This document shows, piece by piece, positions 10,752 to 11,029 of a stretch of DNA of 64,000 bases (the first letter of the stretch is position 1; each line of letters starts with the position of its first letter). The stretch is taken from assembly GCA_037131105.1 (NCBI GenBank), contig JBAXRQ010000001.1, positions 765,465 to 829,464 on the forward strand, in the 5' to 3' direction. The notes under the pieces are model-generated. The model searched no databases and was not told the DNA's origin. It was given only the letters and a program-made list of their open reading frames with translations. The DNA is from a bacterium (GTDB taxonomy: Bacteria; Patescibacteriota; UBA1384; CAILIB01). Both the position numbers and the translations under genes were made by a program.

Positions 10752-10782
10752 AGCCTGATCTTAGCATGTTTAAAGGGTTTGG

Positions 10783-10799
10783 GTGGACCCCACCGGATA
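10783..10799. repeat. 17-bp direct repeat ggtggaccccaccggat, left att-like copy of the tRNA-Ala 3' end
   Basis: Identical to 30256..30272 inside tRNA-Ala; embedded in a tRNA-3'-like fragment with a T-loop insertion. Confidence 0.55.
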
Positions 10800-10904
10800 A
10801 CAGGGCCACTATTTACATTCGGTAGCCCTGCCGCTTTCTGCCCGAGCGCAGAAGCGCGAGCGAACCTCCGGTTTCGTATCCGCGGGCGAAGCCCGACAAA
10901 GAAA

Positions 10905-10937
10905 AAGAACCATCTTCGGATGGTTCTTTTTCTTTGG
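10905..10937 (-). terminator. bidirectional intrinsic terminator (UUCG-loop hairpin flanked by A- and T-runs)
   Basis: gaaccatc-ttcg-gatggttc then ttttt; lies downstream of the minus-strand XRE gene. Confidence 0.55.
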
Positions 10938-11029
10938 TGGACTTGACGCACTTCTGTTCGAATCATTTCTCGCTTGGGTTGACGAGCTTGTGCGCGCTTA
11001 TAACCAGGACCTCGACTAATCAAGCGGTG

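Follow-up and report, generated by a model that had tools for sequence, protein, structure and literature searches.

What is the origin of a tRNA-Ala-like 3′ fragment that is interrupted in its T-loop and lies at the edge of a genomic island? This question was raised by positions 10782–10966 of the window, by which we mean the whole 64,000-nucleotide (nt) stretch of a Patescibacteria contig (JBAXRQ010000001.1) analysed here. An earlier note on this DNA had taken the fragment for the island border, and a hairpin in its insert, shared with a tRNA-Ile remnant region, for a selected structure common to elements that target different tRNAs. We found two layers in the interval: the attachment junction of a large serine recombinase (LSR) element at 10935–10966 and, beyond it, a small module (10782–10934) with the architecture of the tRNA-linked repeats (TLRs) of Escherichia coli. 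It appears probable to us that the two layers are unrelated, and that the module is an older TLR of the E. coli RtT type, forming a structured tRNA trailer.

The locus is a serine-recombinase integration site, as the earlier note had proposed. The integration target was a tRNA-Ala(TGC) gene (30255–30330, minus strand), recognized by ARAGORN, Rfam and pattern searches. Its 3′-terminal 8 nt (GTCCACCA, 30255–30262; tggtggac in plus sense) constituted the first LSR junction, and the same core was found at two further sites on the same strand (22417–22424 and 10935–10942). The recurrence of tggtggac had been noticed before, with the last site placed one base off, at 10936. LSR genes adjoined the first two junctions (gene ends 30319 and 22468). 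The gene next to the tRNA, LSR2 (28742–30319, plus strand), had Resolvase and Recombinase domains according to Pfam, and its open reading frame (ORF) ran antisense through the P′ arm and ended inside tRNA-Ala. A second LSR gene, LSR1 (20888–22468, plus strand; 31% identity to LSR2), crossed the junction at 22417–22424.

The LSR2 element (22425–30254, minus strand) was ~7.8 kb long, low in GC, and had its P arm, ctatttGGTTCCAcgaaaaatgtctgtc, at 22425–22452. At the internal junction (22417–22424, minus strand) this arm met the P′ side of the LSR1 element, indicating tandem accretion. The LSR1 element (10943–22416, minus strand; ~11.5 kb) was bounded by the P arm gATTCGAAcagaagtgcgtcaa and then GTCCACCA, in an attR-type junction (10935–10966, minus strand). 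The P arm occurred twice in the window (ctatttGGTTCCAcgaaaaatgtctgtc followed by GTCCACCA at 22452–22417, and gATTCGAAcagaagtgcgtcaa followed by GTCCACCA at 10965–10935), each time ending in the last 8 nt of tRNA-Ala. Hence two LSR elements in tandem (10943–22416 and 22425–30254) make up the island at the discriminator/CCA end of tRNA-Ala.

The same arrangement was found in other genomes. LSR2 homologues (37–67% identity) were gathered from protein and genome searches, and in ~20 Patescibacteria loci the 3′ end of the LSR gene lay antisense over a tRNA 3′ end (Glu, Lys, Arg, Ile, Phe, Ala). At 10 loci the far junction showed the P-arm consensus ..TTGGTTCCA..(17–18 nt)..(G)TC(C)ACCA, after which the host sequence resumed. 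The T-loop-like box was 15 nt from the junction in both window P arms and 10 nt in tRNA-Ala. The corresponding distances in element arm and tRNA were 17 and 12 nt at the tRNA-Glu loci, and 18 and 13 nt at the tRNA-Phe loci. This +5 bp shift held in at least 8 related Patescibacteria loci besides both window arms. In serine integrases, attP has the zinc-ribbon-domain (ZD) motif 5 bp further from the crossover than attB does (PMC3783163), and the same 5-bp shift separated the two kinds of arm in the window and at the Glu and Phe loci. The tRNA-side arm carried CCA plus a terminator-like hairpin, and was a pseudo-mirror image of the other arm. The recombinases thus appear to read the tRNA T-loop box GGTTCGA via their zinc-ribbon domain, and the junctions place the crossover at the discriminator/CCA end, outside the T-loop.

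With the GTCCACCA core, the arm and the 5-nt shift, tggtggac at 10935–10942 is thus the true recombinase junction. Contrary to the earlier claim, the border is not the interrupted fragment; the fragment lies beyond the junction, as part of a separate and apparently older module. As in known LSR attachment sites (Listeria A118/LI integrase, Bxb1, phiC31), the recombinase gene adjoined the junction, a short identical core was present at all junctions, attP was pseudo-palindromic, and the distal motif was shifted by 5 bp, being nearer to the crossover in attB. Unlike in those systems, the target here was the discriminator/CCA end of a tRNA, whose T-loop box served as distal motif; a replacement terminator came from the P′ arm, and the recombinase ORF ran on antisense into the tRNA. 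None of these differences involved the flagged hairpin. Un-integrated LSR forms were sought in viral contigs, where only relatives of 22–35% identity were found. Taken together, these data resolve how the att sites of a widespread Patescibacteria LSR family are built: the T-loop box serves as ZD motif, crossover takes place at the discriminator/CCA end, and the replacement terminator comes from the element.

The reading frames themselves showed a further feature. After reading into the tRNA, LSR2 had the C-terminus ..LVDPTGFEPVASSVQTRRS, and LSR1 instead read into the arm of the neighbouring element. As the recombinase ORFs cross the attachment junction antisense, the last ~20 residues must differ between the integrated and the excised form. 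In the recombinase family alignment (our loci L004–L035 plus the window), a C-terminal tail ..EKFGT..LSIKK..PRGIEP was conserved.

On the other side of the junction, the presence of a tRNA-Ala-like 3′ fragment with a T-loop insert was confirmed. In tRNA sense (minus strand) it read ACCGGAGGTTCG (10872–10861), a 62-nt insert (10860–10799) and the 17-mer ATCCGGTGGGGTCCACC (10798–10782), the latter identical to nt 59–75 of tRNA-Ala(TGC) (30272–30256). Even at 3 mismatches, the 17-mer had just two sites in the window, and two matches were reached in 2 of 100 shuffles. Between the LSR junction (10935) and the 17-nt repeat (10798–10782) there were 136 nt, arranged in the order terminator palindrome, small hairpin, CCCGCGGATacgaaACCGGAGGTTCG, hairpin 1 and hairpin 2, before the repeat. 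The terminator-like palindrome followed directly after the CCA (10889–10944, minus strand; arms of 26 nt, 88% complementary, core AAAAAGAACCATCcgaaGATGGTTCTTTTT). It included the CCA end and resembled a bidirectional terminator, and analogous hairpins after the CCA were found in two other loci (L004 and L010). The box CCCGCGGATacgaaACCGGAGGTTCG (10861–10883, minus strand) was derived from the T-arm, with an antisense and then a sense T-loop motif; this arrangement recurred in L004, L038, L040 and the E. coli RtT. Hairpin 1, the shared one (10832–10856, minus strand), had a stem of 9 bp, in which one A was bulged, and the loop GCUCGG. Hairpin 2 (10801–10830, minus strand) consisted of CAGGGCUAC, a 12-nt loop and GUGGCCCUG. 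After the second copy of the repeat, ATCCGGTGGGGTCCACC (10782–10798, minus strand), the chromosome continued with a C where the tRNA has A76, and then with a histidine-phosphatase gene (10218–10751).

Each of two hexamers, ACCGGA (10867–10872) and CGGATA (10877–10882), was a complement of sequence at the start of the 17-nt repeat. The RtT-type elements in the window module were ACCGGA/TCCGGT, CGGATA/TATCCG, ACCGGAGGTTCG and two hairpins, the 6-bp helices being within chance expectation. Once the two GTCCACCA-bounded LSR elements are taken out, 10934 directly follows the CCA of tRNA-Ala. The TLR would thus have lain directly after tRNA-Ala before the islands arrived, and the “T-loop insertion” would be the hairpin domain of the TLR module. 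Both recombinases between the repeats used the GTCCACCA core; we found no integrase using the block from T-loop to 3′ end, and no other integrase between the repeats among the ORFs scanned.

In E. coli, TLRs are located downstream of a tRNA or rRNA gene and end in 18–19 bp identical to the 3′ end of that gene (PMC8144298). They have been reported since 1978 and number 22 copies in strain K-12, their function and origin being unestablished except for three 5S-linked small RNAs (PMC8144298). The identity to the tRNA 3′ end was 17/17 in the Ala module (nt 59–75), and 19/19 in the tRNA-Ile-linked units U1 and U2 described below. The MG1655 tyrT/tyrV units read ..GGGGAAGGAT (antisense to repeat nt 59–68), ..CTTCGAccAAGGTTCGA (a copy of the 5′ T-arm with a small indel), a 66-nt GC-hairpin block starting with CTCGAGCG and containing GCGAAGCG, and then AATCCTTCCCCCACCACCA. 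Such a unit amounts to the 3′ part of a tRNA with an interruption in its T-loop, the pattern that the earlier note described for the window. The inserts in the window started with CTCGCGC (Ala) and CTCGTGA (Ile). The Rfam RtT model (RF00391) matched four E. coli units with 133–138 bits (gathering threshold 45 bits), and in its consensus structure the repeat start is base-paired with the antisense segment. In E. coli rrnB the order was 5S RNA end, terminator T1, GC hairpins including GTTGCGAAGCAAC, repeat and T2, and the order in the window (CCA, terminator, hairpins, repeat) was that of this 5S-linked TLR.

The window module thus resembled the E. coli TLRs (RtT; rrA/rrB/rrF after 5S rRNA) in following a stable-RNA gene on the same strand, with a 17–19-nt identical 3′ end, and in tandem repetition (the Ile units compared with the 178-bp tyrT units). 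With RtT in particular it appeared to share an upstream segment antisense to the repeat start, a sense 5′ half of the T-arm with a 2–3-nt indel, a 40–66-nt GC-hairpin block at T-loop nt 57/58 starting with CTCG, and GCGAAGC(G) mini-hairpins. It differed from the E. coli TLRs in its Patescibacteria (Candidate Phyla Radiation) host, in having no detectable homology to the RtT model, in its distance of 19.7 kb from the tRNA, with two islands between, and in a 17-nt repeat starting at nt 59. By definition, judged from its sequence, the window module is a TLR, and by covariance model it is no RtT homologue. Given this architecture, the T-loop insertion is real and falls into a known, functionally unexplained class.

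In L010, L024 and the tRNA-Ile-linked unit U3, the motif GCGAAGCG likewise immediately preceded the tRNA-derived part. We observed GCGAAGC(G) in this position at 4434 and 4497 of L010, at 3370 of L024 and at 33385–33392 of the window, and also in the E. coli loci L045 (1250, 1428, 1606, 1896) and L047 (rrnB). GCGAAGC is known as a very stable mini-hairpin. In addition, GAGGAGCGAAGCG was identical between one E. coli unit and L010.

Modules of the same anatomy were found in other Patescibacteria, at tRNA-Glu (L004), tRNA-Glu(CTC) (L010), tRNA-Cys (L038) and tRNA-Arg (L040). The repeats in L004, L010 and L038 were 17–19 nt long and started at T-loop nt 58–60, and that of L040 was 23 nt long with one mismatch. 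Shorter repeats starting further inside the tRNA were present in L024 (tRNA-Phe, 11 nt) and Ile U3 (9 nt). The modules carried T-arm pieces of their own tRNA, typically antisense and then sense, such as TTCGAACtccgGTTCGAT in L004, GTGAACCgaaGGTTCAA in L038 and ACGAAACCggaGGTTCG in the window; L040 had a 13-nt perfect antisense copy of tRNA nt 53–65. Minimum free energy folds paired the repeat start with the upstream complement and enclosed the GC hairpins, with z-scores between −1.9 and −4.1.

Modules and recombinases occurred together as well as apart. At tRNA-Glu (L004, L010) and tRNA-Phe (L024) a module was found beyond an LSR junction. Five LSR junctions (L006, L008, L019, L030, L032) had no interrupted fragment, and the modules at tRNA-Cys (L038), tRNA-Arg (L040) and the tRNA-Ile of the window had no recombinase element. 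The space between tRNA-Cys and tRNA-Leu was filled in L038, by a module of 161 nt and a repeat of 17 nt. The site was empty in a closely related gut Saccharibacteria genome (L018), where tRNA-Leu followed 11 nt after tRNA-Cys. The module-free LSR junctions, the LSR-free modules and the pair of empty and filled sites together show that the module is independent of the recombinases.

The histidine-phosphatase gene gave a further view of this site, its orthologues in relatives being next to a different tRNA (Arg) with a module of its own, or to no tRNA. In Parcubacteria group bacterium Gr01-1014_20 (L040, 5713–5970), the orthologue (72% identity) was preceded by tRNA-Arg(TCG) and the module with the 23-nt repeat, whose only mismatch was at nt 58. 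In L042 and L043 the gene adjoined a region bearing a reverse transcriptase (RT) or an EVE domain. With such varied neighbours, the upstream side of the histidine-phosphatase gene looks like a variable hot spot.

The tRNA-Ile locus of the window contained further modules. The parallel interruption in the T-loop of tRNA-Ile, pointed out in the earlier note, proved even stronger than that of tRNA-Ala. Directly downstream of the intact tRNA-Ile gene (33730–33806, minus strand) were the units U1 and U2 (33487–33729, minus strand), with two 85-nt copies 99 nt apart that differed in one base. Each copy consisted of tRNA-Ile nt 35–57 (23 nt exact), a 40-nt insert and nt 58–76 (19 nt exact). The intact tRNA-Ala and tRNA-Ile genes themselves had no insert according to ARAGORN and Rfam. 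In the 40-nt insert, GTTCGCT pairs with AGCGAAC, which parallels the UUCG/CGAA pairing of the RtT consensus. The unit U3 contained the shared hairpin, CATAATGACG, GGTTCG and CGCCCACCA.

On the upstream side of the gene there was an exact copy of tRNA-Ile nt 5–37 (33842–33874). Further out we recognized an older shell, in which ggtatcttttggaGGGCGAT (33945–33964) was complementary to CGCCCACCAaaagatac (33321–33342); it corresponded to an older tRNA-Ile, whose 5′ flank and GGGCGAT were the complement of CGCCCACCA together with the 3′ flank aaagatac. Another pair of complementary flanks, agttctctcatgg and ccatgagagaact, belonged to the present tRNA-Ile gene. From the upstream copy and the outer shell it follows that the Ile locus was rebuilt repeatedly. 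No recombinase was found at this locus.

Of the readings that we considered for the module, a structured tRNA trailer is the most likely. The module would, now or formerly, be transcribed as a tRNA trailer or read-through RNA. Its RNA would fold into a closed multi-hairpin body, in which the upstream antisense segment pairs with the tRNA-identical tail. With a 3′ tail identical to the tRNA 3′ end, it would therefore be trimmed and stabilised by the tRNA 3′-processing machinery, as has been proposed for the E. coli TLRs. Each module would come into being at a tRNA 3′ end through a discrete insertion or duplication, and tandem amplification via the 17–19-nt repeats may follow, as at the Ile locus. 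The shared 30-nt hairpin would be a cassette exchanged or co-inherited between the paralogous Ala and Ile modules of one genome, with a stem that is probably preserved for its structure.

Several observations weigh against the trailer reading. Transcription and processing of the module in Patescibacteria are deduced from sequence features. The module is 19.7 kb from the tRNA and behind a terminator-like palindrome, so that present-day transcription is uncertain. The closing helices were mostly 6–7 bp, which singly is chance-expected, and only those of L040 (13 nt) and E. coli (10 nt) were significant. Homology of module bodies across genomes was convincing only for L004 and L010 (z 7.2), the window module being marginally similar to L004 or L010 (z 3.3–3.6). 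The RtT covariance model gave no hit with E ≤ 5 in 10700–11050 or 33250–34050, and none with E ≤ 10 in L010. Finally, TLR-like modules were commoner at LSR-occupied tRNAs (4–5/10) than at others (~3/34), and this enrichment fits an origin as recombination scar at least as well as a functional RNA.

Such a scar is the strongest alternative, and we regard it as possible, at clearly lower probability than the trailer. The module would then be a fossil att junction: the 136-nt body would be the rest of an older element that had its crossover in the T-loop and carried tRNA-Ala nt 59–76 in its attP. After tandem accretion and deletion, a remnant like those of cis-mobilizable elements (CIMEs) would have stayed behind, with the hairpins and the T-arm-like box as functionless leftovers of attP. 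An identity block from T-loop to 3′ end is the classical pattern of tRNA-targeting integrases. With its two tandem islands the locus has proved to be a hot spot, filled (L038) and empty (L018) sites coexist, modules are enriched at LSR-occupied tRNAs, and antisense-then-sense T-loop boxes are the order expected from a fusion of P′ and P arms by internal deletion. As in CIMEs and tandem accretion, elements and a gene-less remnant were stacked at one site and bounded by repeats of the target 3′ end.

Unlike in CIMEs, the module had a longer repeat (nt 59–75) than the LSR elements (nt 69–76), and the anatomy of a TLR rather than random leftovers. No full-length element with a 17–19-nt repeat and a matching integrase was found in ~45 loci, and the predicted attP junction of the module (...GTGGCCCTGTT-ATCCGGTGGGGTCCACC-terminator) had 0 matches in a viral scan. 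The module sizes were uniformly small (~80–235 nt), and the repeats were exact (one mismatch in L040) while the module bodies differed strongly between genomes. Furthermore, E. coli has the same architecture after 5S rRNA and as a curated structured RNA family (RtT); 5S rRNA is not known to be an integration target. These points also argue against the fossil junction.

The hairpin that the Ala module has in common with the tRNA-Ile region poses a question of its own. The match itself was borne out: 10830–10862 and 33393–33425 were identical at 30/33 positions, and TCGCGCTyCTGCGCTCGGGCAGrAAGCGG had exactly two sites in the window and 0 in 100 shuffles. The second copy (33394–33422, minus strand) was inside the tRNA-Ile unit U3 (33334–33486). 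Two of the three differences were compensatory, as had been described: they were the two sides of one pair in the 9-bp stem with its bulged A (T10852:A10837 against C33416:G33401), and the third was outside the stem. Simulations with 3 random substitutions produced one compensatory double change of Watson-Crick type with a probability of 0.018–0.027. The likeness between the Ala module and Ile U3 was limited to the 30–33-nt block (z 12), the flanks being unrelated. The Ala module also weakly resembled Ile U1 around ACGAnnnCGnnGGTTCGCTC..GCnCTTCnGCG (z 2.6).

A covariance model of the 9-bp stem, run at E ≤ 10 over 528 kb (the window, 29 Patescibacteria and 2 E. coli TLR loci), recovered only the two known copies. 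A metagenome scan in which the two variable pairs were free to change gave 0 hairpin matches. With only loop and flanks fixed, there were at least 119 matches; none among the matches listed had 6/6 complementary arms, and the top-ranked ones inspected were GC-rich, coding-like and behaved as random coding sequence. Viral contigs gave 0 matches. Contigs of the same population from other samples had an identical sequence. The protein beside the Ile locus was an orphan, hence no orthologous Ile locus was obtained. As far as searched, the hairpin thus seems to be private to this genome.

The idea of a structure shared by elements at different tRNAs therefore holds inside this genome, for Ala and Ile, and does not extend to a further copy anywhere searched. 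Without further covarying copies, conservation of the stem depends on one compensatory event (p ~0.02). This single pair is suggestive of structure and makes selection on the stem of hairpin 1 plausible. Beyond this genome, the claim of a structure common to different elements was not supported; the lack of further covarying instances, which the earlier note itself had named as speaking against it, is, as far as the data reach, what we found.

The two copies may also be explained by a recent duplication or gene conversion followed by drift, with the “compensatory” pair arising by chance or by templated correction in a quasi-palindrome. Just three differences with a single covarying pair are in line with this, and there are no independent lineages to compare. 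We give it a limited probability, with the low chance of a compensatory double change (~0.02–0.03) speaking against it.

In short-read assemblies, contigs broke at the hairpin start (position 1 of L001 = window 10859) and next to tRNA-Ala (end of L168, window 30343). Breaks were likewise present inside Ile U2 (other end of L168, window 33516) and inside the terminator of the L004 module (start of L005), all in contigs of the same population. With breaks exactly at the repeats, these evidently fragment assemblies.

A more far-reaching idea, which we consider rather speculative, is that TLRs, from E. coli to Patescibacteria, are pan-bacterial insertions built from their own target. Such an insertion would combine the last 17–19 nt with sense and antisense T-arm pieces around an ultra-stable GC-hairpin cassette in a target-templated process (e.g., single-stranded or hairpin-mediated). 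Persisting as an RNA, it would imitate the T-stem and 3′ end of the tRNA and so hijack tRNA processing. The hairpin that the Ala and Ile modules share, with its covarying pair, would represent one such cassette, open to exchange.

It is unlikely that the 30-nt hairpin is a mobile palindrome of the kind of repetitive extragenic palindromes (REPs) or miniature inverted-repeat transposable elements (MITEs), inserted independently in two intergenic spacers. The shared block is sharply bounded within dissimilar flanks, the hairpin in Ile U3 appears as an insertion relative to U1, and a Logan contig breaks exactly at the hairpin start, all of which would fit. Against this, the only two copies in 64 kb were both in tRNA-linked modules, with none elsewhere in the window, and the ORFs examined included no RAYT or IS200-type transposase.

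A role of the hairpin as recognition or structural element of serine-recombinase att sites, common to elements at different tRNAs, is largely refuted and very improbable: it was suggested by the proximity to an LSR junction, the copy in a second tRNA-linked region and the one compensatory pair, but the hairpin was absent from the P and P′ arms of at least 10 LSR junctions, the LSR arms of the window and of ~20 homologous loci included, it is 80–100 nt from the crossover and thus outside the ~50-bp LSR site, a recombinase is absent from the Ile locus, and no other copy was found in LSR loci (by covariance model), metagenome scans or viral contigs. The key link of the earlier note was thus wrong, as the hairpin belongs neither to the recombinase sites nor to a wider covarying family.

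The finding of TLR anatomy in the ultra-small genomes of Patescibacteria, at five or more tRNA species and with one clean pair of filled and empty sites, has wider implications. This spread suggests that TLRs are discrete insertions made by a general process, and no enterobacterial oddity, and it offers comparative material on their formation. Island finders that use repeats of tRNA 3′ fragments would set the border at 10782 instead of 10935, merging three distinct layers into a single island.

Some other candidates were tried and rejected. A tRNA that is split or carries an intron in its T-loop was dismissed: upstream of the interrupted fragment there was neither an acceptor 5′ strand nor a D arm or anticodon arm, and ARAGORN and Rfam both found no tRNA at the fragment. 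Archaeal T-loop tRNA introns likewise interrupt tRNA-identical sequence at T-loop nt 57/58–59; in contrast to them, the window copies are in a bacterial host and lack the entire tRNA 5′ part, so they are not genes. A guide like the IS110 bridge RNA was rejected, there being no DEDD transposase and both tRNA-like segments being in tRNA sense. A single element spanning 10799–30254 and recombining in nt 59–75 was ruled out by the three GTCCACCA cores and the +5 rule in both P arms, and also by LSR junctions without module and modules without LSR. The module as P or P′ arm of an LSR element was discarded after BLAST of 8 modules against all loci, with no match inside elements. As for a retroelement primer-binding site, considered for the 18–19-nt boundary, the RT was ~6 kb away and modules were also present in loci without RT. 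Among known RNA families, the module had no match.

The cargo of both recombinase islands was defence-like. The LSR1 element encoded a helix-turn-helix protein, an AAA_5 ATPase, two ~350-aa paralogues (13371–13548 and 18352–18529 being 78% identical), a 714-aa protein and a split RT in two ORFs (17098–17628 and 16646–17101) with DRT/UG-like matches. In the LSR2 element, with a GC content of 0.40–0.45, we annotated a 1172-aa PDC-S37/Hhe-like helicase-nuclease, a Cas4-like PD-(D/E)XK nuclease and a MerR-like protein.

A 16S rRNA gene was found at 35874–37650. It was 1777 nt long compared with 1533 model positions, so insertions account for ~240 nt. The window yielded no 23S rRNA gene. Protein-coding genes separated the 16S gene from tRNA-Ile and tRNA-Ala, which lay 2–5.5 kb downstream of it. 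In the tRNA cluster downstream of 16S (35340–35505), a tRNA 3′ part, GGTGGTAAAGGTCGCAGGTTCGAGTCCTGTCTCCCGCA, preceded the matching 5′ part, GCGGGAGTAGCTCAGTGGTAGAGCATTATCACC, by 28 nt, which puts the halves in permuted order. They lay between a tRNA at 35434–35505 (ARAGORN anticodon ‘cg’, Rfam 57 bits) and tRNA-Asp, and could be fragments of two decayed tandem tRNA copies, or something stranger.

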